Of a stretch of DNA of 64,000 nt, positions 1,392 through 62,162 are shown piece after piece. Positions within the stretch are counted from its first letter, which is position 1. Each line of letters starts with the position of its first letter. The notes below the pieces were generated by a model, which saw only the letters and a program-made list of their open reading frames with translations, did no database searches and was not told where the DNA came from. Source of the stretch: Minisyncoccota bacterium (GTDB lineage: Bacteria; Patescibacteriota; Minisyncoccia; Phycocordibacterales; UBA9973); NCBI GenBank assembly GCA_041657885.1, contig JBBABB010000001.1, positions 65,094 to 129,093 on the forward strand, read 5' to 3'. The position numbers and the translations under genes were made by a program.

Positions 1392-4085
1392 ATGCCCCCA
1401 TTCAACAATTTTACAACTAAAGCAAAAGAAGTAATACGAAAGGCTCACGAGCTGGCCATTGAACGTGGCCAAAACCATGTGAATTCTCTACATCTTTTGA
1501 CTGCGCTTTTAGTGCAAGAAGATTCTTTGATTATTTCTATATTAGATAAAATGGAAGTTGATACCATGCTTCTAACAGATAATTTGGTTGAGATGATAGA
1601 GTCACCAGAGAACCGTAATACACTTTCACCTTCATATCAAATTTATCTTACCCCAGATTTAGCCCAGATTATAGAGAATTCTACTAAAGTAGCTATCACA
1701 ATTAAAGATGAATTTGTCTCTACTGAACACTTATTCGTTTCTCTTCTTGAAGTTCCAGGTGAAGCTCGTGAATTGTTAGGACGCTTTAAAATAGACAAAG
1801 ATAAAGTTATCGATGTTCTTAAATTGCTTCGTAATGAGAATGTAGCAGAATCAGGTTCCTCTAAGAAACCAAAACTTCTCGTTAAGTTTACCCGAAATCT
1901 CACAACCCTAGCTCGAGAAGATAAACTTGATCCAGTCATTGGGCGTGAAGGAGAAATTATGCGAATGATGCAGATTCTCTCTCGTCGTACTAAGAACAAT
2001 CCTATTTTAATAGGAGAAGCGGGTACTGGGAAAACAGCCGTGGCTGAAGCGCTCGCAATTCGTATTGCCAAAAACGATGTTCCTGAAAGTTTAAAAGATA
2101 AAGAAGTCGTGTCTCTTGATCTTGGATTATTATTGTCGGGAACAAAATACCGTGGAGAATTTGAGGAAAGATTACGTGGTATTATAAAAGAAATAGAAAG
2201 GTCCAATGGTAAAATAATTCTCTTCATAGACGAGATACATACTATAGTAGGAGCAGGAAGTTCAGAAGGGTCCCTTGATGCATCAAACATGCTAAAGCCG
2301 GCACTTGCCCGCGGTGAGCTTCATGCTATAGGCGCAACAACTTTAAAAGAATATCAGAAACATATTGAGAAAGATCCAGCTCTTGCTCGAAGGTTTCAGC
2401 CGGTTTATATAGACGAGCCAAGTATTGATGATGCAGTTGCAATTTTACGTGGACTAAAAGAAAAATATGAGCTTTTCCATGGAGTTCGAATTACAGATGA
2501 TGCTATTATCTCAGCGGTAAACTTGAGTTCAAGATATATTACAAATAGATATTTACCCGACAAAGCTGTTGACCTTATCGATGAGGCTTCATCATCTCTA
2601 CGACTTGCACTTGAAAATAAACCACCAATTTTAGAAGATGCAGACCGCAAAATTATGCGTTTTGAAGTTGAGAAAGAAGCACTCACAAAAGAAATCAAAA
2701 GAGAAAGTAAATCGGAAAGCAAAGTTGCTAAAGACCGATTAAAAGACATTGAGAAAGAGATTGCTAATTTGAAAGAGAAAACCCACGAACTTGAACTTAA
2801 ATGGAAAAATGAAAAAGAAACAGTTCAGGAAATCCGCGCGCTAAAGAAAGAATTAGAATTACTCCGAATTGAAGCCGAAAATGCTGAAATGCGTGCGGAT
2901 TTGGGCAGAGCTGCAGAAATACGATACGGGAGAATTCCTGATTTACAAAATAAATTAGAGACCAAACTTTCTCGTTTGAAAAAACTTCAAAAATCACGTC
3001 GCATACTTAAAGAAGAAATAACCACAGAAGATATTGCTTCTGTTGTTGCTCGTTGGACAGGGATACCGCTTGAAAAGATGCTTGAAGAGGAATTAAAAAA
3101 ATTGTCTCACATAGAAAATGAACTTCATTTACGTGTGGTTGGTCAGAATGTAGCGATTAAAAAGATTGCTGATGTTGTCCGCCGAAGCCGGGCTGGAATT
3201 TCTGACCCAAATAAACCGATTGGTTCTTTCATTTTCCTTGGTCCAACAGGAGTGGGAAAGACAGAACTCACAAAAGCATTAGCTCAATTTATGTTTGATG
3301 ATGACAAGGCACTTATTCGAGTAGATATGAGTGAATACACAGAGCGACATAGTGTGTCAAAGCTTATTGGCTCACCACCTGGATATGTTGGTTATGATGA
3401 ATCAGGTAATCTTACCGAAGCAGTTAGGCACCGTCCTTACTCTGTCGTATTATTTGATGAAATAGAAAAAGCACATCCTGAAGTTTTAAACATTTTACTT
3501 CAAGTACTTGACGAAGGTCGTCTTACTGATGCGAAGGGGCGTGTGGTAAATTTCAAAAATACAATTATTATTCTCACCTCAAATATAGGTTCTAACTTTA
3601 TAGAAAAAATGGAATCATTAGGATTTACAAATAATTCCAAAAAAGATGAATATGCTCAGACCAAAGACAAAGTACTTGATTCTTTGAAAGATTATTTCCG
3701 TCCGGAATTCTTAAATAGATTGGATGATATTATTATCTTTGATATTTTGTCACCTGAAGTTATCCGTCATATTGTTGATATTAAAATTAAAATTATTCGC
3801 GAACGTTTACTTGGAAAGGGAATTGAAATTGAGATTTCCGATGAAGCTCTTTTGTATTTAGCAAAAGAAGGGTATAACCCACATTATGGAGCTCGACCAC
3901 TTGGACGGCTAATACAAGATAAGATTCTAAATCCAGTCGCTAATTTTATTATCTCAAAAGGTGTAAAAAAGGGAGATACTGTCTATGTGACAATGAAAGA
4001 AGGAGAACTCTTGATAGAAATGAAAAAAAAGAAAATTAAATCTGATATTTTAGTTCCAAGATCTCAATTGCATAGTGTGAAATAA
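1392..4085 (+). CDS. clpB: ATP-dependent chaperone ClpB (Clp N-domain, two AAA+ modules, coiled-coil middle domain)
   Basis: 897 aa. Two Walker A motifs (GEAGTGKT, GPTGVGKT) and a long coiled-coil insert between NBD1 and NBD2. The N-terminus is typical (NFTTKAKEVIRKAHELA). Confidence 0.95.
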   Translation: MPPFNNFTTKAKEVIRKAHELAIERGQNHVNSLHLLTALLVQEDSLIISILDKMEVDTMLLTDNLVEMIESPENRNTLSPSYQIYLTPDLAQIIENSTKVAITIKDEFVSTEHLFVSLLEVPGEARELLGRFKIDKDKVIDVLKLLRNENVAESGSSKKPKLLVKFTRNLTTLAREDKLDPVIGREGEIMRMMQILSRRTKNNPILIGEAGTGKTAVAEALAIRIAKNDVPESLKDKEVVSLDLGLLLSGTKYRGEFEERLRGIIKEIERSNGKIILFIDEIHTIVGAGSSEGSLDASNMLKPALARGELHAIGATTLKEYQKHIEKDPALARRFQPVYIDEPSIDDAVAILRGLKEKYELFHGVRITDDAIISAVNLSSRYITNRYLPDKAVDLIDEASSSLRLALENKPPILEDADRKIMRFEVEKEALTKEIKRESKSESKVAKDRLKDIEKEIANLKEKTHELELKWKNEKETVQEIRALKKELELLRIEAENAEMRADLGRAAEIRYGRIPDLQNKLETKLSRLKKLQKSRRILKEEITTEDIASVVARWTGIPLEKMLEEELKKLSHIENELHLRVVGQNVAIKKIADVVRRSRAGISDPNKPIGSFIFLGPTGVGKTELTKALAQFMFDDDKALIRVDMSEYTERHSVSKLIGSPPGYVGYDESGNLTEAVRHRPYSVVLFDEIEKAHPEVLNILLQVLDEGRLTDAKGRVVNFKNTIIILTSNIGSNFIEKMESLGFTNNSKKDEYAQTKDKVLDSLKDYFRPEFLNRLDDIIIFDILSPEVIRHIVDIKIKIIRERLLGKGIEIEISDEALLYLAKEGYNPHYGARPLGRLIQDKILNPVANFIISKGVKKGDTVYVTMKEGELLIEMKKKKIKSDILVPRSQLHSVK

Positions 4086-4549: not shown

Positions 4550-5578
4550 ATGGCTCAACTTTATAGTAATTCAATTTTTTGGGTGGATATAGAAAAAATT
4601 AAATCAAATCCATTTCAACCACGTCGTGAGTTTGATGAAGATCGACTGCGTGATTTAGCTGATTCTATTCGTCAGTATGGTGTGCTTCAGCCACTTGTCG
4701 TATCACGAGAAGAAATTCAAAAAGAAGATGGAGGTATTTCTGTAGAATATGAACTTATCGCGGGTGAGCGTAGATTACGAGCATCAAAACTTGCTGGGCT
4801 AGAACAGATTCCAGTTATTATCAGAGTGGGTGACGATAATATGGCCAAGCTTGAGCTTTCTATCATTGAGAATTTGCAACGTGAAGACCTCAATGCTGTT
4901 GAACGGGCCCGTGCTTTTATGCGACTTGTTGAAGAATTCAAATTCACCCACACTCAAATAGGAGCAAAGGTTGGGAAAAGTCGTGAGTATGTATCAAATA
5001 CACTTCGACTTCTTGCATTACCTCAAGAAATGCTGGATGCACTTTCTGCAAAAAAGATAAGTGAAGGTCATACTCGCCCTATCTTAATGCTTACAGACAG
5101 GCCAGAACAGCAGATGGTTCTATTTAAAGAAATAATCTTTAAAAAAATGACAGTGCGAGACGCAGAAAAAGCAGCACGTAAAATTGCTTTTGATCGTGTT
5201 CGTAAAAAAGAATATCTTATAGACCCAGAGATAGCGGAAATGGAAGAGAAATTACAAGAGTCCCTCGGCACGCGTGTTCATATAGAAAAGAAAGAGAATG
5301 GCGGTTATATTACTATTGATTTCTTCACAAATGATGACTTACACACTATTCTCGGCCTAATTAAATCAAGTGAAGATAAAAATCCAAATAGCATGCTGGA
5401 TAAATTTATAGCAAGTCAAGAATCACAAATTAAAGCTGTGATTTCTGTAGAGGACAATCCATCTAATGATACAAATGGAGATGACGATACCCATCTTATT
5501 GATGACAGAACAAAACAAGAAATAAAAAAAACAGAAGAAGATATTGACCTTTATAATATCAAAAATTTCTCAATTTAA
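4550..5578 (+). CDS. parB: Chromosome partitioning protein ParB/Spo0J with a long acidic C-terminal extension
   Basis: ParB box II motif (LIAGERRLRASKLAGLEQIPVII) and HTH region (HTQIGAKVGKSREYVSNTLRLL). Confidence 0.9.
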   Translation: MAQLYSNSIFWVDIEKIKSNPFQPRREFDEDRLRDLADSIRQYGVLQPLVVSREEIQKEDGGISVEYELIAGERRLRASKLAGLEQIPVIIRVGDDNMAKLELSIIENLQREDLNAVERARAFMRLVEEFKFTHTQIGAKVGKSREYVSNTLRLLALPQEMLDALSAKKISEGHTRPILMLTDRPEQQMVLFKEIIFKKMTVRDAEKAARKIAFDRVRKKEYLIDPEIAEMEEKLQESLGTRVHIEKKENGGYITIDFFTNDDLHTILGLIKSSEDKNPNSMLDKFIASQESQIKAVISVEDNPSNDTNGDDDTHLIDDRTKQEIKKTEEDIDLYNIKNFSI

Positions 5579-7041
5579 TTTTTCCCGAACGATAAAAATT
5601 TAGAAAGTAAACTATTTGATTTCAAGTAGAGATTTATTTGCTTGCGGGCAAGAGTAGTTTTGGCATAGTCAAGCCATTTTGAAGATGGATTAGCTTTTTT
5701 GTTTACTTGTATTTCAACTATGTCATTGTTTTTTAATTTAGTATTAAGGGCTGAATTTTTGCCATTTACTATTGCTCCTTGGACATGGTTGCCAATATCA
5801 GTATGTATCACATAAGCAAAATCAATAACAGAAGAATCTTCTGGTAGATCTATAATATCTCCCTTGGGAGTAAAAACGAAAACTCGGTTTTTGAAGAAAT
5901 CCATTTTTATTGTTTTTAAGAAATTTTCTGGATTATCTTCATGTTGATTAAGTTCGTGAAGTTGTTGCACCCATTCAAATTGTTTCGGTATTGTTTTTTC
6001 TTTACTACCTTTTTCTTTATATATATAGTGTGCTGCAATACCGTTCTCAGCCTTTTCATGCATTTCATGTGTACGAATTTGTATTTCTACTATTCCTCCA
6101 GTCCCTGTAAATATAGTTGTATGTAAACTCTGGTATCCATTTGCTTTTGGGGTAGCGATATAATCTTTTATGCGATTAGGCACTGGAGTCCATTCTCCGT
6201 GAATTAATCCGAGGACATGGTAACAATCAGCAACGGAATCAACCATAACTCGGAGAGCTATTATGTCGTATATTTTACCCATATCCATATCACATTTTTG
6301 GAGTTTCTTCCAGAGTGAATATAAGTGTTTTTGCCTGTAATCTATCAGAGCGCCCTTTATTTTTACTTCTTTTATTTTTTGAGTAATTATATTTTTTACT
6401 TCAATCAAATATTTTTTATCAACATCTTTTTTATCTAAAAGTAATTTTTTAACTTCTTCATATTCTTTGGGATATGCAAATTTAAATGCTGCATCTTCCA
6501 ATTTACCCTTAAGTCGCCCCATAGACAAACGATCTGCGAGAGGAGCATATATTTCTAGAGTTTCTAGCGCTATGCGTTTCTGTTTGTCTGGGCGAACATG
6601 CTCTAAAGTCTCCATATTGTGAAGTCGATCTGCCAATTTAATAACAAGAACACGCAAATCTTTTGCCACAGATATAAAAAACTTTCTCAAGTTTTCTACG
6701 TTGCGTTCTACACCTTTATATTTAACTTTACCAAGTTTTGTAACTCCTTTTATTAGTTCTACTATTTCATTGCCAAATTCTTTTTTTAATTCTTCTTCGG
6801 TAATAAGTGTATCTTCCATAACATCATGAAGTAATCCTGCTGATATTGTTTTTGACTTCATTCCAAGATCGGCTAAATTTTTCGCTGTTGCAAATACATG
6901 ATTGAAATATGGATCACCACTTTTACGCAACTGCCCCTTATGAGCAGTACGTGCGAAATCATAGGCTTTTTGTATAAGATCTTTATCCTCTTTTTTTAAA
7001 TTTTGTGCTAAAGAAAATATTTCTTCTACCTTAGGTTCCAT
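5575..7041 (-). CDS. rel: Bifunctional (p)ppGpp synthetase/hydrolase of the RelA/SpoT family, short form (HD, synthetase and TGS domains; no ACT domain)
   Basis: HD motif (HDVMEDT), synthetase domain (YQSLHTTI..GIVEIQIRT), TGS domain (VFVFTPKGDIIDLP). Its 3' end overlaps parB convergently by 4 nt. Confidence 0.9.
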   Translation of the reverse strand: MEPKVEEIFSLAQNLKKEDKDLIQKAYDFARTAHKGQLRKSGDPYFNHVFATAKNLADLGMKSKTISAGLLHDVMEDTLITEEELKKEFGNEIVELIKGVTKLGKVKYKGVERNVENLRKFFISVAKDLRVLVIKLADRLHNMETLEHVRPDKQKRIALETLEIYAPLADRLSMGRLKGKLEDAAFKFAYPKEYEEVKKLLLDKKDVDKKYLIEVKNIITQKIKEVKIKGALIDYRQKHLYSLWKKLQKCDMDMGKIYDIIALRVMVDSVADCYHVLGLIHGEWTPVPNRIKDYIATPKANGYQSLHTTIFTGTGGIVEIQIRTHEMHEKAENGIAAHYIYKEKGSKEKTIPKQFEWVQQLHELNQHEDNPENFLKTIKMDFFKNRVFVFTPKGDIIDLPEDSSVIDFAYVIHTDIGNHVQGAIVNGKNSALNTKLKNNDIVEIQVNKKANPSSKWLDYAKTTLARKQINLYLKSNSLLSKFLSFGKN

Positions 7042-17279: not shown

Positions 17280-18326
17280 TTAATTTTCTTCTTGGGGTTT
17301 CTCTATAGAAAGAGTTTCAATCTCTATTGTCTCTCCGGTAATTCGCATGACGTCTTTATCTATTTTTCTGAATTCGTGATTTGATTTATTAAAATGATTT
17401 ACTGTTGTTTCAATAGATTTGCCAAGTTTTTGGTGAACTTCTTCGTAACTTCGTAAATGTGTTCCCAGCTCTCCAACTCTTTTAATAATATCTTTTGCCC
17501 CTTCTTCTATTTGCATGGCTTTGAGGCCCTGAAGCACTGTTTGCAGATATGCAAGGAATGAAGTAGGGGATACTATTATAACTTTATATTTACTAGCAGC
17601 TCTTTGAATCAAGTTATCTGTCTCTTCACTACTTCCACCAATTTTATTTACCAACAAATCATAATAGATTGCTTCGTGAGGGATGAACATAAAAGCGAAA
17701 TCCATGGTGTTTTCTTTTGGTTGGATATATTTAGATGTTTCAACTATTCTATTCTTTAAATCACCCACAAAAAGTTTCTCAAGGCGGTCCTTTTCTCCCT
17801 TATCATTTGTCTCTGAAATACGATTGTAATTTTCAAGTGAGAACTTTGAATCAATAGGAATAATTTTATCTTTAACAAAAACCACCGCATCAACTATAGT
17901 CCCATCAGGAAATGGATACTGCATTTGATAACTTCCCGGGGGCATAACATTTTTGAGTAATGTCTCAAGGTAATATTCTCCCAAAACTCCTCGTTGCTTT
18001 GGGTTCTTCAATATGTCTTGCAAGTTTTTAAGCTGGTCAGCAAAGGAAACAACTTGTTTATTTGTCTCATCTAGACGGGTAATTTTCTCAGTAATATCAG
18101 CGATAATTCGCGATGTTTCTGTTGATTGGTATCGCATGGATTGGCTTATTTCTTTTTGGGATTCACCAAGCTTGTTGTCTATAGTGCGAGATAATTCATT
18201 TATTTGAGTCAAAAGAAGTTGTACCCCATTATCACTCTTCTCAACTGGTCCCTTTTTCAGAAAGAAAAATAACCCTATGACAAGGACAATGAGAACTCCC
18301 AGAAAAATAATGATAAGTAAATTCAT
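17280..18326 (-). CDS. rmuC: DNA recombination protein RmuC
   Basis: N-terminal TM helix, coiled coil, and RmuC core (DAVVFVKDKIIPIDSKF..FAFMFIPHEAIYYDL). Confidence 0.75.
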   Translation of the reverse strand: MNLLIIIFLGVLIVLVIGLFFFLKKGPVEKSDNGVQLLLTQINELSRTIDNKLGESQKEISQSMRYQSTETSRIIADITEKITRLDETNKQVVSFADQLKNLQDILKNPKQRGVLGEYYLETLLKNVMPPGSYQMQYPFPDGTIVDAVVFVKDKIIPIDSKFSLENYNRISETNDKGEKDRLEKLFVGDLKNRIVETSKYIQPKENTMDFAFMFIPHEAIYYDLLVNKIGGSSEETDNLIQRAASKYKVIIVSPTSFLAYLQTVLQGLKAMQIEEGAKDIIKRVGELGTHLRSYEEVHQKLGKSIETTVNHFNKSNHEFRKIDKDVMRITGETIEIETLSIEKPQEEN

Positions 18327-23122: not shown

Positions 23123-23195
23123 GCCCTGTTAGCTCAGCTGGTAGAGCAGCTCCCTCTTAAGGAGATGGTCGGGGGTTCGATTCCCTCACGGGGCA
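23123..23195 (+). tRNA. tRNA-Lys (anticodon CTT)
   Basis: Hand-folded cloverleaf. D-arm TAGCTCAGCTGGTAGAGC, anticodon loop CTCTTAA, T-loop TTCGATT, discriminator A. Confidence 0.9.
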
Positions 23196-23197
23196 CA

Positions 23198-23529
23198 ATA
23201 ATAAAAACCGTTGTAAAATGGTTTTTATTATTGTGCCCCGTAGCGAGACAACTGCTTGTCTCGCGTGAGGGAATCGAAAGACTTTTCCATACGAGCGAAG
23301 CGAGACGGAAAAGTACCTGCCTATGTAATAGGCGAAAGCGTACCCGCGTTTCCCTCACGGGGCACAAATTTTTGCGAAGCACAAAATTTGTGATTCTTAA
23401 ACATATCTAAATATATGTTTAAGAAAATCGAAAGACGAAGGCTGACGAGCCGAGTCGGGGTCGCGAGATTTTTCAGTAGAAAAATACTTGTGACCGAAAA
23501 CGTAATCGCGATTCCCTCACGGGGCACAA
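23198..23529. repeat. Array of tRNA-Lys 3'-end copies. Direct 18-mers ttccctcacggggcacaa at 23,350-23,367 and 23,512-23,529 match tRNA residues 23,181-23,197. A split inverted copy lies at 23,232-23,273 with a 23-nt palindromic insert. Intervening segments are rich in GNRA-type loops (gcgaaagc, tcgaaaga, gcgaagc)
   Basis: Exact string matches read on both strands. A terminator-like hairpin (aataaaaacc..ggtttttatt) follows the tRNA at 23,198-23,230. A perfect 11-bp hairpin lies at 23,390-23,417. Confidence 0.5.
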
Positions 23530-23578
23530 AAATTTGTAAATGTATTTGATTTTTTATTTTTAGGAGTATAATTAGAAT

Positions 23579-24244: not shown

Positions 24245-25830
<1,586 letters not shown>

Positions 25831-26133
25831 TTTGAAACCGTTGTGCTTTGCACATGAACTCGACACAAATTACGAATGGTTACGAATGTACGAATTAAAT
25901 TCGTGTCATTCGCATAAATTCGTGTATTAGTATCGTGTTAGCGAAGCGTAACTTATTGAGTCGATATTATGTGCCTCAATTGAGCACATAATGGACATTG
26001 ATTTTAAGTCCTAAAAGAAATCTGACAACAAGGGAAAGACCTGATAGGACGGAACAATAGAAAAAATATTTTTCTTGATTGATTTGATTATGAAAAAATA
26101 CCTCATTAAAGTTTAAATAAAATTAAACAAAAA

Positions 26134-40018: not shown

Positions 40019-40045
40019 GCTCCGAACTTGGGAGGATGTTCGAAT
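40019..40045. repeat. Hairpin/mini-ORF element copy 1 (gctccgaacttgggaggATGTTCGAATAA)
   Basis: The same 27-mer recurs at 41,216-41,242 (+), 54,013-54,039 (-) and 58,215-58,241 (-, variant). A degenerate copy lies at 56,114-56,130. Confidence 0.6.
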
Positions 40046-40128
40046 AAGTATTGCAGAGAATTAAAAAAGAGCTTGCCATAAAGACAAGCCCAGTTTTTTT
40101 GTTGAATTTTTCATTAACTACTTTCTAT

Positions 40129-41215: not shown

Positions 41216-41242
41216 GCTCCGAACTTGGGAGGATGTTCGAAT
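41216..41242. repeat. Hairpin/mini-ORF element copy 2 (gctccgaacttgggaggATGTTCGAATGA)
   Basis: Exact match to the element core. A bidirectional terminator hairpin follows at 41,265-41,300. Confidence 0.6.
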
Positions 41243-41308
41243 GAGTATTATTAAGTAAATATAAAAGCCCATCAGTGAAGATGAGCTTCTACAGATGGGC
41301 TTAGTTTT

Positions 41309-52364: not shown

Positions 52365-52720
52365 GGATCGAACCTACGACCAATCGCTTACACTTTATCT
52401 CCTATTACTAGAAGTGTGGACTATATCATCTCCATGTTCATAATTTTATGAATTTAGGAGCAAGGCGCTTCCCATCCGATTATTACCGGAAAGTACTCCC
52501 CGAAAGGATAGTCTCTACACCTTCCTCGATTTTGTGTCGAGGCTTGGCTCGGGATTACCCTAGGCTAAATCAATTATAAATAATTGATCGCCCGAACTTT
52601 TGTTTTCAAAAGTTTTTAGGGGCTTCCCCGAATTCACCTTGTTTTTCATCCTACTTTTCAATAGAAAGCTGCGTAAATTTTCTTTCCACAGGCGATCGCT
52701 CTACCGCTGAGCTACCACGG
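52353..52720 (-). tRNA. tRNA-Asn (anticodon GTT) interrupted in the anticodon loop by a 296-nt group I intron
   Basis: Exon 1 is 52,687-52,720 (TCCGTGGTAGCTCAGCGGTAGAGCGATCGCCTGT). Exon 2 is 52,353-52,390 (TAAGCGATTGGTCGTAGGTTCGATCCCTACCCACGGAG). The joined anticodon loop is CTGTTAA. U1-A72 and discriminator G are as in E. coli tRNA-Asn. A tRNA-Thr alternative (splice after CT) is not fully excluded. Confidence 0.75.
52391..52686 (-). ncRNA. Group I intron of the cyanobacterial tRNA-Leu intron type (about 300 nt, no ORF)
   Basis: P7 halves AGACTA and TAGTC (ggtgtagagacta ... gatatagtcc). P3/P4 block aatcccgagccaagcc. Exon CTGT pairs with internal guide GCAG with a U-G at the 5' splice site. 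The intron ends in G. Confidence 0.75.
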
Positions 52721-52928
52721 AATGTATCTACTTATAAAGTAGATGTGGTTATAATATCAAAAAAATATCCAAAAAGCAAAGTAAAATGATAATATAAATA
52801 TGGAAAGATAACCTACCCACAAAAATTGCTTTTTTTTATAAATAGTTGTATAGTTAGAACATTAACAATAAGCCTATATATTAATTATATGTTTTGTTGA
52901 TATTATTAATAATAAAAAAATAAAAAAT

Positions 52929-53310: not shown

Positions 53311-53337
53311 GGAGCCTGATTTCAAGCCTTATTTTAC

Positions 53338-53381
53338 AAGGCTTATTTTTCCTGCCTTAGTAGAAGTTCGAACCTATTGAC
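53338..53381 (+). promoter_or_regulatory. Shared promoter module, copy 2 (aaggcttatttttcctgccttagtagaagttcgaacctattgac), ending in a -35 TTGACT
   Basis: Matches the other three copies. A -10-like taatgt box lies 17 nt downstream. Drives the ORF at 53,440. Confidence 0.45.
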
Positions 53382-53907: not shown

Positions 53908-54012
53908 ATTGCCTGCCAAAAGAAGACCCTCCTTCTCTCGGCGGGTTTTTTTTGTGAATATGTGCACATTGTGAACTTCCTAGAAGGGTATGTCTACTTA
54001 GTTAGGATAGTT

Positions 54013-54039
54013 ATTCGAACATCCTCCCAAGTTCGGAGC
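54013..54039. repeat. Hairpin/mini-ORF element copy 3 (minus orientation; reverse complement reads gctccgaacttgggaggATGTTCGAATAA)
   Basis: Exact match to the element core. Confidence 0.6.
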
Positions 54040-55382: not shown

Positions 55383-56042
55383 ATGAAAAAATCGGTCAAA
55401 AAGGCCAGTTTTTTCTCTGGCCAGGTTCATAGACTTCTGAATAAAATTTTAAAAGGAATGAAAAGAAGAAAAGAAATTTATTCTTTTACTTCTGTCTTAT
55501 CCCAGTTGGGAGCAAAAAATCTATTGGCTTCTTTCAGGGTTTTTACTTCTGAAAATAGGTTTTTTGAGATTCTATTTAAGGAAGCAATTACTTTCAGCCC
55601 ATCACACGGAGCTGAAGTAGGGGAATGTTATGGATGGAAAGTGGTGATTTTGTTAGGCAAGAATTATACTGCCAAAAAAATCAATTATATTATATTGAAT
55701 GAAATTAAAAGTAGAAGAGTTGGGCAAAAGGTGGAAGAATCATGCCGTAAAGCTATTCAATACCTTATTGATCACGATGAAGAAGTAGGGTCCATTATCT
55801 TCTCTATAAAGATTTCAACCGATACAGAAGACAGGGACTGGAAAATTGACCTTTTTTTGGAAACACAAAAAGGTAATGTTCCGCTCCAAATAAAATCTAG
55901 TCTTATGGGGCAAGTTTCTCATAAGATTAACGACCATAGAGTTACATCACTAGTTTTTAAGGAGAAGATGGAAACTAGTGAATTGAAGGATAAGATTCTT
56001 TTGATTTGCAAATCTTATCCAAAAATTATTGAACATTTGTAA
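55383..56042 (+). CDS. Hypothetical protein
   Basis: ORF only. Confidence 0.4.
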   Translation: MKKSVKKASFFSGQVHRLLNKILKGMKRRKEIYSFTSVLSQLGAKNLLASFRVFTSENRFFEILFKEAITFSPSHGAEVGECYGWKVVILLGKNYTAKKINYIILNEIKSRRVGQKVEESCRKAIQYLIDHDEEVGSIIFSIKISTDTEDRDWKIDLFLETQKGNVPLQIKSSLMGQVSHKINDHRVTSLVFKEKMETSELKDKILLICKSYPKIIEHL

Positions 56043-56113
56043 AGGGGCTTCTTGTATTTTATACAGAAGCCCTTTTTTTTTAATAATTATTTAATCATTT
56101 TAGGTTTCCACTT

Positions 56114-56154
56114 CGTTCCAAGTGCGGAGCCTATGGGCGAGGCAAGTTCTGAGC
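56114..56154. repeat. Degenerate hairpin-element remnant plus 24-nt companion motif (ctatgggcgaggcaagttctgagc)
   Basis: The companion motif is identical to 58,242-58,265. The leading part is a deleted variant of the hairpin element. Confidence 0.5.
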
Positions 56155-56176
56155 CTCAAAATAAACCTTATAAATC

Positions 56177-56246
56177 AAGGCTTATTTTTCCTACCTCAGT
56201 AGAAGTTCGAACCTGATTGACAGATTAGAAAATTTATTGATATAAT
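56177..56246 (+). promoter_or_regulatory. Shared promoter module, copy 3, with -35 TTGACA (56,217-56,222), an 18-nt spacer and -10 TATAAT (56,241-56,246). Candidate promoter of the RiPP-like cluster
   Basis: Module match plus canonical sigma-70-like boxes. Confidence 0.45.
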
Positions 56247-56377
56247 TACCAAAACATTGAAAACAAGTCCTATTTTTGTATTTCTTTTTGGTCAATAAAG
56301 TTAAATTAAAATTTATAGTAAATTTTAAACCATTAAGCAAAATATGAATTTTAGGCAAGAAAGGAGGAAAAGCCATC

Positions 56378-56458
56378 ATGAAACCGGGGATTATAAAAAA
56401 GGTAAAAAAACGCGTCAAAGTACGCATAGGAAAAGGAAGTTGTTGTATCTGCGATTAA
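56378..56458 (+). CDS. Candidate RiPP precursor peptide, 26 aa (MKPGIIKKVKKRVKVRIGKGSCCICD): a cationic body with a C-terminal Cys cluster
   Basis: An ATG 8 nt downstream of a canonical SD (aaaggagg, 56,360-56,367). Immediately upstream of a radical SAM/SPASM gene. A hairpin follows at 56,480-56,510. An alternative 45-aa frame starting at 56,345 lacks an SD. Confidence 0.5.
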   Translation: MKPGIIKKVKKRVKVRIGKGSCCICD

Positions 56459-56479
56459 GTAGAGACGACTGTCAAAAAT

Positions 56480-56510
56480 AGGGGAGAATATTTTTTAAAA
56501 ATTCTCCCCT
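56480..56510. terminator. Hairpin (aggggagaat tatttttaaaa attctcccct) between the precursor and the maturase gene. Possible partial terminator or attenuator
   Basis: Perfect 10-bp stem. Confidence 0.45.
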
Positions 56511-56549
56511 ATAAATATTTTAGTTTATAGATTTAAAAAGGAGGTTAAA

Positions 56550-57629
56550 ATGGAATGTAAATTTGAGACACCTCTTTTGGAAGTAGAGATTAGAGATACC
56601 ATCTATGAAATAGAATTTGGTCAAATCCAACTCGAAATTACAGGAAGGTGTAATATGAATTGCCAACATTGCAGAGCAGATCATCAACTTAGGCGGGATA
56701 TGCCAATTGAGCAAATCATTAAAATTATCAGGTTTGCACGCCAGTTTAGTCCTAACTATAAAGAAATTATTATTTCTGGCGGAGAACCTTTAATTCATAA
56801 AAATATTAATGATGTGCTGAAGCAAGTGCGTACTAATGGGGGTGAGTTTATTACCCTGACGACTAATGGTTCACTATTAACTAAAGAACATTTAAATTTG
56901 ATTCGAGATTTATCTTTTCAACGCTTTGTGCTTTCTGTAAGCCTTGATAGTCTTGATTCAAACCAACACGACAATTTTCGTTGTTATGATGGAGCCTTTT
57001 TAAAGGCTGTTGGCTCTTTACGTTTAGTAGCTGAATATAATTTACCAAACCTTGTTGCTTCAATGAGATCAACAATCCAAGCTTCACAAATTAGTGAAAT
57101 GGAAGAAATGGTAAACTTTGCTAAAAACATTGGATGTAAAAGAGTTAGCTTTTCTGCAATTCATCCATCAGGGAAAGCTATCAAACGCGAAGATCTCTGG
57201 ATGAATAAAGATCAAAAACTAGCTTTTATTAAGGAAGTTTATCGTCTTAAATTATTATTTCCTGAAATAAATGTAACCACAAATGATCCATTAAAATGTT
57301 TAATTCGTGGGAAAAATGATTTAGGTAAAGAGAACGAGATAGTTTTTGATGGTTGTGGTGCTGCGGCTATTACTTTCAATGTGAATTCCGACGGAACAAT
57401 GACCCCATGTGCACTCTTAAACATTCCAATGATGAATGTTTTTCCTTTAAGTATTAAAGAAATTACCAAAAAATATCAAGAAAGTGAAATTGTTAAAAAT
57501 ATGTTAGAAATGAATCTTAAAGGGAAATGTGGAGATTGTAAGATCAAATATCAGTGCGGTGGTTGTCGTGCTCGTGCTTTAATCCAAAATGGAGATTATT
57601 TGGGTGAAGATCCTCATTGTTGGATATAA
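56550..57629 (+). CDS. Radical SAM enzyme with a C-terminal SPASM/twitch-type auxiliary Fe-S cluster domain (peptide-modifying maturase family)
   Basis: CxxxCxxC (CNMNCQHC) at residues 34-41 and a C-terminal Cys-rich region (CGAAAI..CALL..CGDCKIKYQCGGCRARA). A canonical SD (aaaggagg) lies 7 nt upstream. Confidence 0.85.
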   Translation: MECKFETPLLEVEIRDTIYEIEFGQIQLEITGRCNMNCQHCRADHQLRRDMPIEQIIKIIRFARQFSPNYKEIIISGGEPLIHKNINDVLKQVRTNGGEFITLTTNGSLLTKEHLNLIRDLSFQRFVLSVSLDSLDSNQHDNFRCYDGAFLKAVGSLRLVAEYNLPNLVASMRSTIQASQISEMEEMVNFAKNIGCKRVSFSAIHPSGKAIKREDLWMNKDQKLAFIKEVYRLKLLFPEINVTTNDPLKCLIRGKNDLGKENEIVFDGCGAAAITFNVNSDGTMTPCALLNIPMMNVFPLSIKEITKKYQESEIVKNMLEMNLKGKCGDCKIKYQCGGCRARALIQNGDYLGEDPHCWI

Positions 57630-57643
57630 GTTTTATAAAAATA

Positions 57644-57665
57644 TATGGTCGTTTTTAAACGACCA
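57644..57665. terminator. Terminator hairpin after the radical SAM gene (atggtcgttt tt aaacgaccat)
   Basis: Perfect 10-bp stem, T-rich 3' flank. Confidence 0.5.
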
Positions 57666-57694
57666 TTATTTTTTTATATGATATAATATAAAAT

Positions 57695-58165
57695 ATGAAT
57701 ATTTATTTAAAAAAATTTATAGATAAAAAATTTAAAATAGTTGGTAAATCTCTAGATTTAGGTGCTGGTAATTTTTTTGATGTTGCTTGTTTAAAGCAAT
57801 TAGGTTGGAAAAGCAAAGGGGTTGATCTTCGAACAGGAATCGACCTAGAAAAACGCTTTATTTCAAAAAATAAACCATTCGATTTGATTTATTCAAACTA
57901 TGTAATACATAAAATAAAAAATAAAAAACAATTTATTAAAACGATTTATGTTAATTTAAAAGAAAAAGGTTGGCTTTTTATCCACACTTTTGATAAAACT
58001 GATGTCAATAGTACTTCAAATTTATCCAGTGATAATTTGCAAGAACTATTGGAAAAACAAGGATTTAAAAAAATTAAAATAAAGGTTTTTAAATATTATG
58101 ACAATGAAGATGGACATAAGCATTGGCATAAAATCTTGGAAGCAACAGCCCAAAAATTAGTTTAG
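57695..58165 (+). CDS. Class I SAM-dependent methyltransferase (small, 156 aa)
   Basis: Motif I LDLGAGNF and motif post-I DL; Rossmann MTase length. Confidence 0.65.
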   Translation: MNIYLKKFIDKKFKIVGKSLDLGAGNFFDVACLKQLGWKSKGVDLRTGIDLEKRFISKNKPFDLIYSNYVIHKIKNKKQFIKTIYVNLKEKGWLFIHTFDKTDVNSTSNLSSDNLQELLEKQGFKKIKIKVFKYYDNEDGHKHWHKILEATAQKLV

Positions 58166-58214
58166 ATAAAGACTAAGAGTCTGATTTTGATATAGTCAGT
58201 CTTTTTTAATACTC

Positions 58215-58265
58215 ATTTGAACATCCTCCCACGTTCGGAGCCTATGGGCGAGGCAAGTTCTGAGC
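58215..58265. repeat. Hairpin/mini-ORF element copy 4 (variant, minus orientation; reverse complement gives ..gggaggATGTTCAAATGA) fused to the companion motif ctatgggcgaggcaagttctgagc
   Basis: String matches to the 40,019 family and to 56,131-56,154. Confidence 0.55.
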
Positions 58266-58304
58266 ATTTATAGGTATTACGAAATATTGTGGTATAATTT
58301 AAAT

Positions 58305-58760
58305 ATGAAAAATAATAAAATTATATATATTGTTATAGCTGTTTTAGTTATCGGTGGTGGATTGTTTTTCTTTTTAGGTAATAAGGGAAGACAACAAGAA
58401 AATAAAACTAATCAAGAAGCAACAACGACGCCGTCAACTGCATCTCAAGTTTCGCTAGATGATAAAACAATGGTTGATTGTGGTCTGGCAAAAGACCCTA
58501 TGTGTTTTATAAATAGAATGAATGAATGTTTACCGGTAACTGTTAAAATGACAGGGTCAGATAATACAACAAACATAGAAATGATTGTACTAGGAGTAGA
58601 AAATGAAGCATGTCATTTCCAGAGAAAAATAAATAATGTCATAGACCTTGATTGTTTTTTCCCAAAAGGAACTATGAATGGGAATACTCTTGACCAGACC
58701 TTTGGGAATGATAAAGGTCTGCAAAAAGTAGTTGATGATGCTTGTAAGAAGGGGTGGTAA
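58305..58760 (+). CDS. Hypothetical secreted Cys-containing protein. Likely leaderless start 6 nt after TGTGGTATAAT
   Basis: Signal peptide (MKNNKIIYIVIAVLVIGGG). The ORF-track start at 58,287 is a TTG inside the -10 box and was rejected. Confidence 0.45.
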   Translation: MKNNKIIYIVIAVLVIGGGLFFFLGNKGRQQENKTNQEATTTPSTASQVSLDDKTMVDCGLAKDPMCFINRMNECLPVTVKMTGSDNTTNIEMIVLGVENEACHFQRKINNVIDLDCFFPKGTMNGNTLDQTFGNDKGLQKVVDDACKKGW

Positions 58761-58842: not shown

Positions 58843-59292
58843 ATGAAAATTGAAAGTGATATTTTTGTAAATAATAGCAGTATTCCTATCGAATATACTT
58901 GTGACGGAAAAGGAATACAACCCCCGCTTAAAATATCTGGTGTGCCAGCAGAAGCAAAAAGTTTAGCGCTTATTGTTGATGACCCTGATGCCCCGAGTGG
59001 AGATTTCGTGCATTGGATAGTTTGGAATATTGACCCTAATATATCTGTTATTGAAAACAGCAATGTTTCCACTGGCGCAGTAGAGGGTTATACAAGTTTA
59101 AATAAGTCGGGCTTCGTTGCCCCTTGCCCTCCGTCTGGCATCCACCATTACAATTTTAAACTTTATGCCCTTGATACTATCCTCTCAATTCCGAAGTCCT
59201 CAAATAAAGCCGACCTTGTTCGGGCTATGGATAAACACATTATTAACAATGCAACCCTTGTCGGTTTATACGAACGGAATAAAACACAATGA
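58843..59292 (+). CDS. YbhB/YbcL (PEBP/RKIP) family protein
   Basis: PEBP signature (DPDAPSG..HW..CPPSGIHHYNFKLYALD). The start is 6 nt after TGTGATATAAT. Confidence 0.75.
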   Translation: MKIESDIFVNNSSIPIEYTCDGKGIQPPLKISGVPAEAKSLALIVDDPDAPSGDFVHWIVWNIDPNISVIENSNVSTGAVEGYTSLNKSGFVAPCPPSGIHHYNFKLYALDTILSIPKSSNKADLVRAMDKHIINNATLVGLYERNKTQ

Positions 59293-59915
59293 ATAAAAAA
59301 GAACTCATTAAAGAACTTGAAGATAGGGGAATCAGAGAAGAAATACTAAAAGTCATAGAAAAAGTTGATAGAAAAGATTTTATTTTGGAGAAAAATTTAA
59401 ATGAAGTTTATGAAGACCACCCTCTTTCCATTGGATACGGGCAAACGATAAGTCAACCATATACTGTAGCTTTCATGTTGCAGGAGCTTGAGCTAAAAAA
59501 GGGTGACAAAGTTTTAGAAATTGGAACGGGTAGTGGATGGAATGCCGCTTTGATTTCCGATATTATCGGAGAAGAAGGAAAAATTTACAGTGTTGAAATT
59601 GTAAAAGAACTTGCTGAAAAGGCGAAAGAAAAATTAAAAAAATATAAAAATATTGTTGTTTTAAATACAGATGCCTCGCATGGGCTTGCCGAATATGCTC
59701 CATATAATAAAATAATTTTAACCGCAGCCCCAAAGAAAATTGCTGAAGAGTTCAAAGAACAACTAGCTGATGAGGGAATTTTACTTGCACCAGTGGGAGA
59801 ACATATCCAAAAACTTATAAAAATAACAAGAGAAAAAAATAATTTTACAGAAACAGAAAATGGAGATTTTGTCTTTGTCCCACTAGTAAGCGGAACAGGG
59901 AACTGTATATATTAA
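59289..59915 (+). CDS. pcm: Protein-L-isoaspartate O-methyltransferase
   Basis: GYGQTISQPYTVAFML and VLEIGTGSGWNAA motifs. Confidence 0.85.
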   Translation: MNKKELIKELEDRGIREEILKVIEKVDRKDFILEKNLNEVYEDHPLSIGYGQTISQPYTVAFMLQELELKKGDKVLEIGTGSGWNAALISDIIGEEGKIYSVEIVKELAEKAKEKLKKYKNIVVLNTDASHGLAEYAPYNKIILTAAPKKIAEEFKEQLADEGILLAPVGEHIQKLIKITREKNNFTETENGDFVFVPLVSGTGNCIY

Positions 59916-60817: not shown

Positions 60818-62162
60818 TTTTAAAAATATTATGAATAAAAATATATTAAATATATCTATTATAATTATAGGGATTTTAATCTCTGGAGTTATCGCTAGTT
60901 CGTCAATTGTTCAAGCAGAAGTTTCATCTGCTTCAGAAATTTCCTATCCTATTACTGAATTAGGAAATTGTGCGGACAAAGCAACGTGTAAAGTTTATTG
61001 CGACGAACCAGCAAATGTAGATGCTTGTTTGAGTTTTGCTGAAAAGAACAATATGATGTCAGGTGAAGAGGTAACATCAGCTAAAAATTTTAAAAAAGCA
61101 GGAATGATTGGTCCAGGTCAATGTAAAGGTAAAGATGAATGCCAAAAATATTGTAGTGCGCCAGATAATATGGATGAATGCATAACATTTGCTGAAAAAA
61201 ATGGATTAATGTCTAGTGATAAATTGGAAAAGATAAAAGGTCAGGCAAAAAAAGTTAAAGCTGCAATAGCTAAAGGGATAAAGCCACCAGCTTGTTCTAG
61301 TCCAGATGAATGTTCTTCTTACTGTTCAAAGACGGAACACATGGAAGAATGTATCAATTTTTCTATTGAGGCCGGTATTATGGATGAGCAGGAACAGGAA
61401 GATGCGGAGAAAGTTTTATCAGCAATTAAAGAAGGAATTCAACCACCTGCTTGTGCTGGTAAAGATGAATGTGATACTTATTGTTCCGAAACGAAACATA
61501 TGGAGGAATGTTTAACATTTGCGATGAAAGCAGGAATGATGACAGGAGAAGAAAAGGGACAGGCACAAAAAACTATTAATGCCATAAGAAATGGTATTAT
61601 TCCACCTAATTGTAAAGGGGAAGAAGAATGTAAAACTTATTGCGCAGAAGAATCTAATTTGGAAGAATGTATTACGTTTGGAGAAGCGATTGGAAAAATT
61701 AAAAAAGAAGATATTGAAATGATAAGGAATAGTGGTGGTAAAGGTTTTGGTCCTGATGGTCAAAATAATGGAGGTGGTGAAGGACAGGGTGGTCCTGGTA
61801 ATAATGGCGGAGGTGGTGGACAGAGCGGATGGAGTAATGGTACTGGAAATGGTGGTGGAAATGGAGGGCCAGATTCTCTAAATCAAGGCGGTAAAGGTGG
61901 TGGTCAAGGTCCTGGTGGTCAAGGTCCTGGTGGTCAAGGCGGACAAGGAATGGGTGGCCCTAGCGGTCCTAATGGTGGCGGTCCTGGAGGTCAAGGTGGC
62001 CAAGGAGGTCCTGGAAATAATGGCGGGGGTGGGGGACAGAGTGGCTGGAGTAATGGTACTGGAAATGGTGGTGGAAATGGGGGGCCAGGTGGTCAAGGTG
62101 CTGGAGGCCCTAGTGGTGGTGGAGGTGGTGGAGGTTCTGGCGGCGGCGGTGGTGGACGCTAA
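60810..62162 (+). CDS. Secreted repeat protein: six about-45-aa four-Cys modules (C-x3-C-x3-C-x7-EC-x-TFAEKNG) followed by a Gly/Asn/Gln-rich tail containing a 76-bp near-perfect internal DNA repeat (61,795-61,870 vs 62,005-62,080)
   Basis: Signal peptide, six collinear Cys modules, low-complexity tail. The DNA repeat was read directly. Confidence 0.55.
   Translation: MNNFKNIMNKNILNISIIIIGILISGVIASSSIVQAEVSSASEISYPITELGNCADKATCKVYCDEPANVDACLSFAEKNNMMSGEEVTSAKNFKKAGMIGPGQCKGKDECQKYCSAPDNMDECITFAEKNGLMSSDKLEKIKGQAKKVKAAIAKGIKPPACSSPDECSSYCSKTEHMEECINFSIEAGIMDEQEQEDAEKVLSAIKEGIQPPACAGKDECDTYCSETKHMEECLTFAMKAGMMTGEEKGQAQKTINAIRNGIIPPNCKGEEECKTYCAEESNLEECITFGEAIGKIKKEDIEMIRNSGGKGFGPDGQNNGGGEGQGGPGNNGGGGGQSGWSNGTGNGGGNGGPDSLNQGGKGGGQGPGGQGPGGQGGQGMGGPSGPNGGGPGGQGGQGGPGNNGGGGGQSGWSNGTGNGGGNGGPGGQGAGGPSGGGGGGGSGGGGGGR

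Follow-up and report, generated by a model that had tools for sequence, protein, structure and literature searches.

The window analysed here, 64,000 nucleotides of a Minisyncoccota bacterium genome (contig JBBABB010000001.1, positions 65,094 to 129,093), raises a compact question: what is made by a peptide gene of 26 codons, a radical S-adenosylmethionine (SAM) enzyme with a SPASM domain and a small methyltransferase that stand together between positions 56378 and 58165 on the forward strand? We find that the unit, a tiny peptide ending in CxxC-Asp with its radical SAM/SPASM enzyme and usually the methyltransferase, is a real and previously undescribed cassette. Its kind is already known, that of radical SAM/SPASM pairs resembling the systems for peptides synthesised on ribosomes and modified after translation (RiPPs), while the family itself is new. 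In the public record at NCBI the two enzymes are named 'radical SAM protein' and 'methyltransferase domain-containing protein', with no annotation for the peptide gene; Pfam, NCBIfam, Rfam and the searchable literature (on RiPPs of Patescibacteria or the candidate phyla radiation (CPR), SPASM, ranthipeptides and the tail strings) hold no description of the family. Radical SAM RiPP families lacking characterisation are numerous. Judged from the sequence, it is fairly probable that the three parts make a ribosomal peptide modified at its extreme C-terminus.

The peptide (MKPGIIKKVKKRVKVRIGKGSCCICD) is encoded at 56378-56458. An initial annotation of the window had proposed this open reading frame (ORF) as a precursor gene and let its reading depend on the ORF recurring beside homologous radical SAM genes. 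It does recur, in CPR bacteria and in DPANN archaea: a six-frame search for tail-bearing ORFs upstream of the orthologous enzyme gene, across 28 loci with upstream sequence, recovered an ORF ending in [IV][KR]VRIGKGSCxxC[D/N/S] directly 5′ of the enzyme gene in 27. At the 28th locus (L022, Riflebacteria, 3530-3889) the same core (...KVSAGKNSCAICN) forms the C-terminus of a 119-aa protein, whose N-terminal part bears a faint, sub-threshold resemblance to a CMD/AhpD-like fold (E = 0.11); the core is carried by all 28 orthologous loci. Protein look-ups added six further loci with the same peptide-enzyme pairing, and a profile search returned 26 unnamed small proteins of the peptide family without a Pfam domain. 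No curated family covers them, five peptides having given zero matches against NCBIfam (E <= 10) and the window peptide none against Pfam. Over the last 12 codons in 24 loci, the first and second codon positions have entropies of 0.38 and 0.28 bits and the third 1.34 bits, the position of the stop is fixed and the sequence 3′ of it is unconserved. Because of this pattern we take the ORF to be a translated gene under strong purifying selection.

What is conserved is the end of the peptide. CxxC is invariant in 50 of 50 distinct peptides, and 47 of them (94%) stop exactly one residue past the second Cys, at Asp (40), Asn (3) or Ser (4); two others extend past that position and retain Asp there, and one ends in GD. 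The string CxxCD, a Cys-X3-Asp motif, is found in 42 of the 50, including the two with C-terminal extensions, and corresponds to C22-x3-D26 in the window peptide. Whole peptides measure 18-46 aa and carry two Cys, sometimes three. The N-terminal part is hydrophilic and variable in length, Lys-rich in bacteria and Glu/Lys-mixed in archaeal versions, where the net charge is near 0 to +2. Given a part so variable, hydrophilic and, in archaea, nearly neutral, the earlier suggestion that the poly-Lys body makes the product membrane-active is weak. Tail variants (CRTCD plus extension; GENSC/GKNSC...N/S) co-diverge with enzyme clades, and the 12-residue tail as a whole hardly varies across two domains of life.

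The enzyme gene (56550-57629) encodes 359 residues behind a second AAGGAGG (56538-56544, 5 nt 5′ of the ATG) and belongs, as had been proposed from its CNMNCQHC motif and its C-terminal Cys cluster (CGDCKIKYQCGGCRARA), to the radical SAM superfamily and its SPASM branch. With Radical_SAM PF04055 the enzyme reaches 78.2 bits, the cut-off being 29.5, and the cluster motif C34-N-M-N-C38-Q-H-C41 (CX3CX2C) is invariant across 56 homologues. The NCBIfam SPASM model TIGR04085 covers residues 269-357 at 40.8 bits against a cut-off of 27; the Pfam SPASM model alone is borderline (20.5 against 21.5). The seven-Cys motif of SPASM domains, C269-x12-G-x4-C287, C327-x2-C330-x5-C336-x2-C339 and C357, is invariant or nearly so. 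Beyond the radical SAM motif there are eight further conserved Cys: C250, C269, C287, C327, C330, C336, C339 and C357. A database search with the enzyme gave thousands of relatives; the best 120 are 60-81% identical to it and come almost all from Patescibacteria.

In an AlphaFold2 (AF2) model of the enzyme (predicted local distance difference test (pLDDT) score 93.5), about 25 residues, forming three short strands, precede the radical SAM core. Since the N-terminus ahead of the core is so short, the enzyme has no RiPP recognition element (RRE) domain. Foldseek places SkfB, CteB, PqqE, SuiB (template modelling score 0.76) and anSME at the top, so that the nearest solved structures are all SPASM or twitch peptide modifiers. 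By sequence, SkfB and CteB are the nearest solved structures, at just 18-23% identity.

No characterised family claims the enzyme. It is matched by 78 NCBIfam families, none above its own cut-off: NirJ2 (TIGR04055) scores 157.5 bits against 500, TIGR04053 141 against 395, AhbD (TIGR04545) 140 against 500, GeoRSP 130 against 400, TIGR04051 109 against 515, PapB (NF047865) 83.4 against 340, PqqE 76.3 against 381, AlbA 75.5 against 850, MftC 61.7 against 265, StsB 61.6 against 625, the SCIFF maturase (TIGR03974) 20.8 against 425 and anSME (NF010321) 17.4 against 441. The expectation that the enzyme would not group with non-peptide families therefore holds, with anSME and the heme enzymes below their curated cut-offs; of the maturase profiles that had been put forward, the SPASM model stands and the SCIFF and ranthipeptide families fall short.

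The cassette resembles several known systems in part. It shares with AhbD, NirJ, NirJ2, TIGR04053 and GeoRSP the top hidden Markov model (HMM) scores (130-157 bits), a length of about 330-366 aa and a compact, RRE-less architecture, but differs in falling under cut-offs of 395-500 bits, in its obligately linked peptide gene and in the lack of tetrapyrrole genes nearby; an AhbD/NirJ heme-pathway enzyme was rejected, its models being below cut-off and the flanks holding no tetrapyrrole genes. SkfB and CteB, nearest in solved sequence and fold, are thioether-forming maturases with twitch or SPASM domains, yet CteB has an N-terminal RRE, which the cassette enzyme lacks, and C250 is extra in the cassette enzyme. 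A sactipeptide synthase of AlbA, StsB or CteB type was rejected, with HMM scores below cut-off and no N-terminal RRE. Like SCIFF peptides and their maturases, the cassette is a minimal peptide and radical SAM/SPASM unit, strongly conserved lineage-wide, with no transporter or protease and with a highly conserved Cys-bearing C-terminal region; unlike them, its peptides have two (sometimes three) Cys rather than six and do not match TIGR03973. Membership of TIGR03973/TIGR03974 was rejected on a maturase score below cut-off, peptides with 2-3 Cys and no NCBIfam match at E <= 10. In MftA/MftC and PqqA/PqqE, too, the radical SAM/SPASM enzyme targets residues of a small, strongly conserved peptide that lie at its C-terminus or close by, and lineage-wide conservation suggests a physiological role over one in warfare; the cassette, for its part, is without a PqqD/MftB-type chaperone or conserved downstream processing enzymes. 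A mycofactocin or PQQ (pyrroloquinoline quinone) maturase was set aside, MftC and PqqE being below cut-off and no conserved PqqD/MftB-type partner being present. Rejected likewise were anSME (HMM below cut-off, no sulfatase in any neighbourhood, peptide tail without C/S-x-P-x-R) and a prokaryotic viperin of defence, for which the PADLOC pVip match spans just the radical SAM core (residues 26-207) of an enzyme that also has a SPASM domain.

A precursor gene is linked to, and co-conserved with, a peptide-modifying enzyme, the linkage by which RiPP systems are recognised. On these sequence grounds we consider it very probable that the peptide is the substrate of the enzyme, and probable that the modification falls within the CxxC[D] tail. 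That the modification is a thioether is a more tentative proposal, drawn by analogy and possible rather than probable. Direct recognition of the tail, which is conserved, basic and strand-like, is most likely, since the enzyme has no RRE and the N-terminus of the peptide varies freely. In the scheme that we favour, the enzyme would modify the last five residues of the peptide. The 5′-deoxyadenosyl radical that it would generate would abstract a hydrogen from a carbon adjoining a carboxylate of the final residue (C-beta of Asp, or the terminal residue's C-alpha). A bond from that carbon to the thiol of the Cys four positions upstream, as PapB makes at Cys-X3-Asp, would close a small C-terminal thioether ring, and the methyltransferase would then cap a carboxylate or thiol left over. 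PapB makes thioethers at Cys-X3-Asp/Glu motifs and in vitro also joins Cys to a C-terminal carboxylate-bearing residue (PMC9413430, PMC12373016). In what is a small sample, the Asp/Asn/Ser pattern of the last residue fits a required carboxylate at that position, from the Asp side chain or from the C-terminus.

Of the known systems, the freyrasin-type ranthipeptides of PapA/PapB are the model for this scheme. They too have a radical SAM/SPASM maturase beside a short Cys-containing precursor, and the cassette tail, C-S/A/C-I-C-D, holds Cys-X3-Asp as do the six motifs of PapA. The differences are that the cassette enzyme is without an RRE, that one motif at the extreme C-terminus stands in place of six internal ones, that the cassette has a dedicated methyltransferase, and that the hosts are CPR bacteria and DPANN archaea. 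As a member of the PapB family by HMM (NF047865) the enzyme was rejected, the score being below cut-off although the Cys-X3-Asp/Glu pattern of the substrate is found.

Several observations weigh against a methylated thioether. The enzyme lies far under the cut-offs of the PapB and SCIFF maturase models, and its best HMM scores are to NirJ2, AhbD, TIGR04053 and GeoRSP; the chemistry of AhbD is oxidative decarboxylation, with no thioether formation. C250 aligns to a non-Cys residue in CteB, and the eight Cys hint that both auxiliary clusters are fully protein-ligated, as in anSME, SuiB and PqqE; the enzyme would in that case lack an open position where a substrate Cys could bind, such as the sactisynthase CteB has. 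The methyltransferase stands beside none of the six archaeal cassettes. Its structural neighbours do not discriminate between targets: a sequence search of the Protein Data Bank and Foldseek both give generic small-molecule class I methyltransferases such as BioC, TehB and Ecm18. The C-terminal reaction of PapB has been shown for D- or beta-amino acid termini. Finally, a side-chain carboxylate is not strictly required, since 7 of 50 peptides end in Asn or Ser.

The main rival is that the pairing serves another chemistry: oxidative decarboxylation or dehydrogenation of the C-terminal residue, the unsaturated group perhaps being captured by the neighbouring Cys, or else oxidation, epimerisation or a carbon-carbon link in the tail. 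Such decarboxylation or dehydrogenation is carried out by MftC on the C-terminal Tyr of MftA and by AhbD on propionates, and the best NCBIfam scores, NirJ2 (157 bits) and AhbD (140 bits), are to enzymes acting on carboxylate-bearing side chains. That 94% of the peptides end one residue past the second Cys points to a role for the free C-terminus, where Asn and Ser variants are tolerated, and the eight auxiliary-cluster Cys are as in anSME, SuiB and PqqE, which do not make thioethers. However, the two scores are far under cut-offs of 500, two C-terminally extended peptides keep an internal Asp, a misfit for a mechanism dependent on the alpha-carboxylate, and the invariant CxxC is most simply explained by sulfur in the product. 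We regard a chemistry of this sort as rather unlikely.

The thioether scheme has the peptide as substrate; a further alternative is that the enzyme acts on a small molecule, a tetrapyrrole-like or other cofactor intermediate, and that the peptide is a co-expressed carrier of metal or Fe-S clusters or a nucleic-acid binder. The Joint Genome Institute (JGI) labels two close homologues (P0012, P0088) 'AdoMet-dependent heme synthase', and NirJ2 and AhbD are the best HMM matches. The label is probably a misannotation, because AhbD scores 140 against 500 bits and no heme genes are linked, and the matches of 140-157 bits are all far under cut-offs of 500. That no neighbourhood holds an RRE, a protease or an exporter would suit an enzyme of small molecules, and a Lys/Arg-rich peptide behind a structured leader is reminiscent of autoregulated RNA-binding proteins. 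Yet no heme or cofactor genes are conserved nearby, the linkage is obligate (28/28 loci) with tail variants co-diverging with enzyme clades, a near-invariant short Cys-containing C-terminal tail beside a SPASM enzyme is a hallmark of a substrate, and the top structural neighbours are all peptide modifiers. We hold this alternative to be very unlikely. As for the small ORF being a chance reading frame in what is merely the leader of the radical SAM gene, its mere 26 codons, the lack of public annotation and an overlap with other small ORFs count for little against conservation across two domains, coding-type substitutions, a fixed stop and 26 independently called homologues in the protein database, which already refute it and leave it a negligible chance.

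The third part of the cassette lies beyond an intrinsic-terminator-like element (57645-57675; hairpin 57645-57666, then a T-run) 3′ of the radical SAM gene. It is a class I SAM methyltransferase of 156 aa (57695-58165; Methyltransf_23, E = 1.7e-11) with a conserved C-terminal GHKHWH motif, and both terminator and gene stand as first annotated. When all ORFs in the loci were clustered, a methyltransferase of about 155 aa was the only other conserved neighbour of the peptide-enzyme pair. It adjoins in 16 of 28 loci of the first set, the window counted, either 3′ of the enzyme gene or 5′ of the peptide gene, and in six additional distinct loci, which brings the count to roughly 22 of 27 bacterial loci with enough flank. 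The family is narrow (249 database clusters at E <= 1e-5), its relatives being 58-74% identical to the window protein with an invariant C-terminal HxHWH-type motif; its AF2 model has a pLDDT of 95. Cassette neighbourhoods hold no conserved protease, exporter, immunity gene or RRE/PqqD-like gene, and no sulfatase, heme, cofactor or tetrapyrrole genes are conserved near the cassette. Because the flanking genes vary between loci, the unit relocates as a cassette. In two archaeal loci (L007, 5100-5651; L025, 1387-1950) a GNAT acetyltransferase (Acetyltransf_3, RimJ/RimL-like) follows the radical SAM gene; in this, the methyltransferase position, it may be an alternative tailoring enzyme or a chance placement. 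In the window itself, an ORF 1.1 kb downstream (59289-59915) reads like a protein-L-isoaspartate O-methyltransferase and is not conserved with the cassette in other loci.

How the cassette is expressed can be read in part from signals conserved among its relatives. A sigma-70-type promoter, TTGACA-18-TATAAT with the TG of an extended -10 (56217-56246, 12/12 matches), is the sole perfect site within 55900-58500. From it would be transcribed a leader of about 125 nt holding a conserved structured RNA (56265-56356), followed by AAGGAGG (56361-56367) and the peptide gene. This Shine-Dalgarno (SD)-like motif lies 10 nt 5′ of the ATG, not the 8 nt first given. Between peptide and enzyme genes stands a GC-rich hairpin (56478-56512; -19.8 kcal/mol, z = -2.5), annotated before as a 10-bp stem at 56480-56510; the hairpin is there, with a stem of 12 bp. 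An equivalent, usually with a T-run, is found at 21 of 22 bacterial loci and at each of the five added later, and at no archaeal locus. Conserved as a structure in nearly all bacterial loci, it bears out the proposed order of precursor, hairpin, maturase and methyltransferase. It is probably a leaky terminator or attenuator, and leaky terminators giving surplus precursor mRNA are seen in many RiPP operons. The hairpin would probably end most transcripts, so that peptide mRNA would exceed enzyme mRNA; the second AAGGAGG, the enzyme gene and its terminator would be reached by the remainder, and the methyltransferase would be transcribed apart, as a leaderless mRNA, from an extended -10 (TGATATAAT, 57679-57687) that ends 7 nt 5′ of its ATG.

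The leader is a candidate new cis-regulatory RNA. In 13 bacterial loci (the window, L001, L002, L020, L023, L028, L029, L052, L055 and L058-L061) it folds independently into the same rod of about 95 nt; the fold of the L024 leader is similar but divergent. An outer helix (CCUAU/AUAGG), a long middle helix and a terminal hairpin of 9-10 bp make up the rod, which has a one-sided conserved bulge of 13-14 nt (CAAUAAAGUUAAAU) and leaves the SD unpaired 5 nt 3′ of the structure. A covariance model, R1, built from 12 sequences, scores 67.6 bits in the window (E = 1e-12). It recovered its 12 sequences and one more instance (L020), again just 5′ of the peptide gene; across the window and 38 loci there was no further match. 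With the alignment fitted to the model, pairing holds for 87% of cells, where slid controls reach 35-51%; compensatory changes are seen at 23 of 34 pairs, the controls having 7-10, and 0 of 500 shuffles attain the observed values. This alignment leans towards structure, but it is matched by the independent folds. From plain MAFFT alignments RNAalifold gives the inner helices only, the full structure coming from per-sequence folding and the covariance model. Searches of leader and hairpin against Rfam returned only noise. Possible roles for the leader are those of a riboswitch, of an operator bound by a protein or peptide, and of an element that stabilises the mRNA.

The SD motifs set the cassette apart from its surroundings. 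AAGGAGG occurs 10 times on the two strands of the window, twice at SD spacing 5′ of a gene, and these two, both in the cassette, are the sole canonical SDs at gene starts in the window. An SD of at least 5 nt precedes 2 of the 55 window ORFs of at least 90 aa, one of the two being the radical SAM gene, which agrees with the first impression that almost no other gene has one. The accompanying statement that all three cassette genes have canonical SDs is right for the peptide and radical SAM genes and wrong for the methyltransferase, with its extended -10 instead. Very many window genes have such an extended -10 (TGnTAtAAT) ending 6-8 nt 5′ of the ATG; examples start at 5575-7041(-), 13769, 17280-18326(-), 19145, 34016, 57695, 58305, 58843 and 60021. 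By these signals leaderless mRNAs appear to be the dominant mode in the window, a dominance of which we found no published description for Patescibacteria. The 16S gene (24245-25832; 3′ end about 25815-25832) has the tail GGAAUAAUUCAAUU where the Rfam model has GGAUcACCUCCUUu; compared in this way the tail is, as had been noticed, without CCUCC, the anti-SD GGAUCACCUCCUU being replaced by GGAAUAAUUCAAUU. The string CACCTCCTT is absent from the entire window. Loss of the anti-SD has been published for about half of Parcubacteria (PMC9297842).

The 16S rRNA of the window, then, cannot pair with the AAGGAGG motifs of its cassette. Motifs of GGAGG type stand 5′ of both peptide and enzyme genes in most bacterial loci, the methyltransferase gene is of leaderless type in most relatives as well, and one locus (L062) has lost both SDs. 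By this comparison the layout, SD-peptide-hairpin-SD-radical SAM gene with a leaderless methyltransferase gene, is ancestral to the cassette. Because the same arrangement is present in most relatives, it gives no sign of recent arrival, and the recent horizontal acquisition that the initial annotation had drawn from the strong SDs is not borne out. Since they go back to the ancestral cassette and at least one locus has lost them, the motifs may be relics. The cassette may also move between Parcubacteria with and without an anti-SD, or the motifs may act in some anti-SD-independent manner. Perfect SDs, a 16S rRNA without an anti-SD and mostly leaderless genes together make a natural test case for initiation on leadered mRNAs.

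A scan of species-representative genomes gave 51 loci, 29 of them clear orthologues at 55-80% identity; beyond these, the next relatives of the enzyme fall to 30% identity or less. By its sequence relatives, the cassette is common to many ultra-small CPR bacteria and some DPANN archaea. No relative was found among 2.9 million viral contigs. The archaeal carriers are five loci labelled Woesearchaeota or Nanoarchaeota and L063. These contigs are truly archaeal, as judged from the encoded diphthine synthase (L010 and L021, above the curated cut-off), archaeal-type PheT (L007) and TrmB regulator (L010). At the archaeal loci the spacers are short and AT-rich, hairpin and SD are both missing, and TATA-like boxes lie 25-30 nt 5′ of the ATG. 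Their enzymes are 69-78% identical to the window enzyme, many CPR ones being just 58-70% identical to it, and in a neighbour-joining tree without support values the three archaeal enzymes included form one clade inside a Paceibacteria/Moranbacteria-like clade. This suggests one transfer from CPR to DPANN, followed by refitting with archaeal signals. In two Nanoarchaeota contigs of metagenome-assembled genomes the radical SAM gene is split by frameshift (L021, 3983-5079; L025, 297-1399), which makes them pseudogenes unless the assembly is in error.

The genomes of CPR bacteria and DPANN archaea are tiny and hold very few recognisable biosynthetic clusters, and the same peptide-maturase unit under strong purifying selection in both lineages, with enzymes 58-81% identical to that of the window, suggests importance to the cell. 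The cassette could be a first molecular handle on a trait shared by ultra-small symbionts. At about 1.8 kb and three genes it should be easily reconstituted, which makes radical SAM peptide chemistry at a C-terminal CxxC-Asp motif, possibly of a new sort, accessible to study. The most far-reaching account would make the product a peptide of physiological importance, cofactor-like or used in host interaction rather than a niche antibiotic, with its CxxC-Asp tail modified in a new way (for example by a thioether directed by a carboxylate, or by a ring formed with decarboxylation, and methylated afterwards). The cassette would have been exchanged between CPR and DPANN, the two major groups among ultra-small episymbionts, and in one bacterial clade would have come under a new riboswitch-like or peptide-autoregulated leader RNA. 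That so much should hold together is unlikely.

Repeats flank the cassette. Two intergenic repeat modules lie 5′ of it (56105-56214) and one copy 3′ of it (58209-58265), each identified by its identity to other copies in the window: 56105-56154 shares about 86% identity with 58216-58265, and 56151-56214 about 81% with 53312-53375. Copies were found at 40019-40052(-), 41216-41249(-), 54007-54039(+), 58209-58265(+), 56105-56214(+) and 53312-53375(+); they sit just past the ends of genes, and the cassette has copies to either side. From the core, GAACATCCTCCCAAGTTCGGAGC, a 7-bp stem can fold that presents CCUCC in its loop, AUCCUCCCAA; this core is present in 0 of 63 related loci. Of the shared promoter module first described here, TTGACA-18-TATAAT is present as stated, but the flanking repeats are specific to this genome. 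We rejected them as a cassette-borne promoter module for this reason: they do not travel with the cassette. The element may be REP-like (resembling repetitive extragenic palindromes), a terminator or something else.

Three further features of the window lie apart from the cassette. A group I intron match (Rfam RF00028, 63 bits) is found at 52398-52746 (-). At 23123-23536 the 3′ portion of a tRNA gene (CGATTCCCTCACGGGGCACA) recurs twice more behind the gene, spaced by 169 and 162 nt, which could reflect repeated integration at the tRNA site. An ORF of 443 aa (60831-62162) contains a long Gly-rich tandem repeat (GGxGGQGP-like, 61749-62143).

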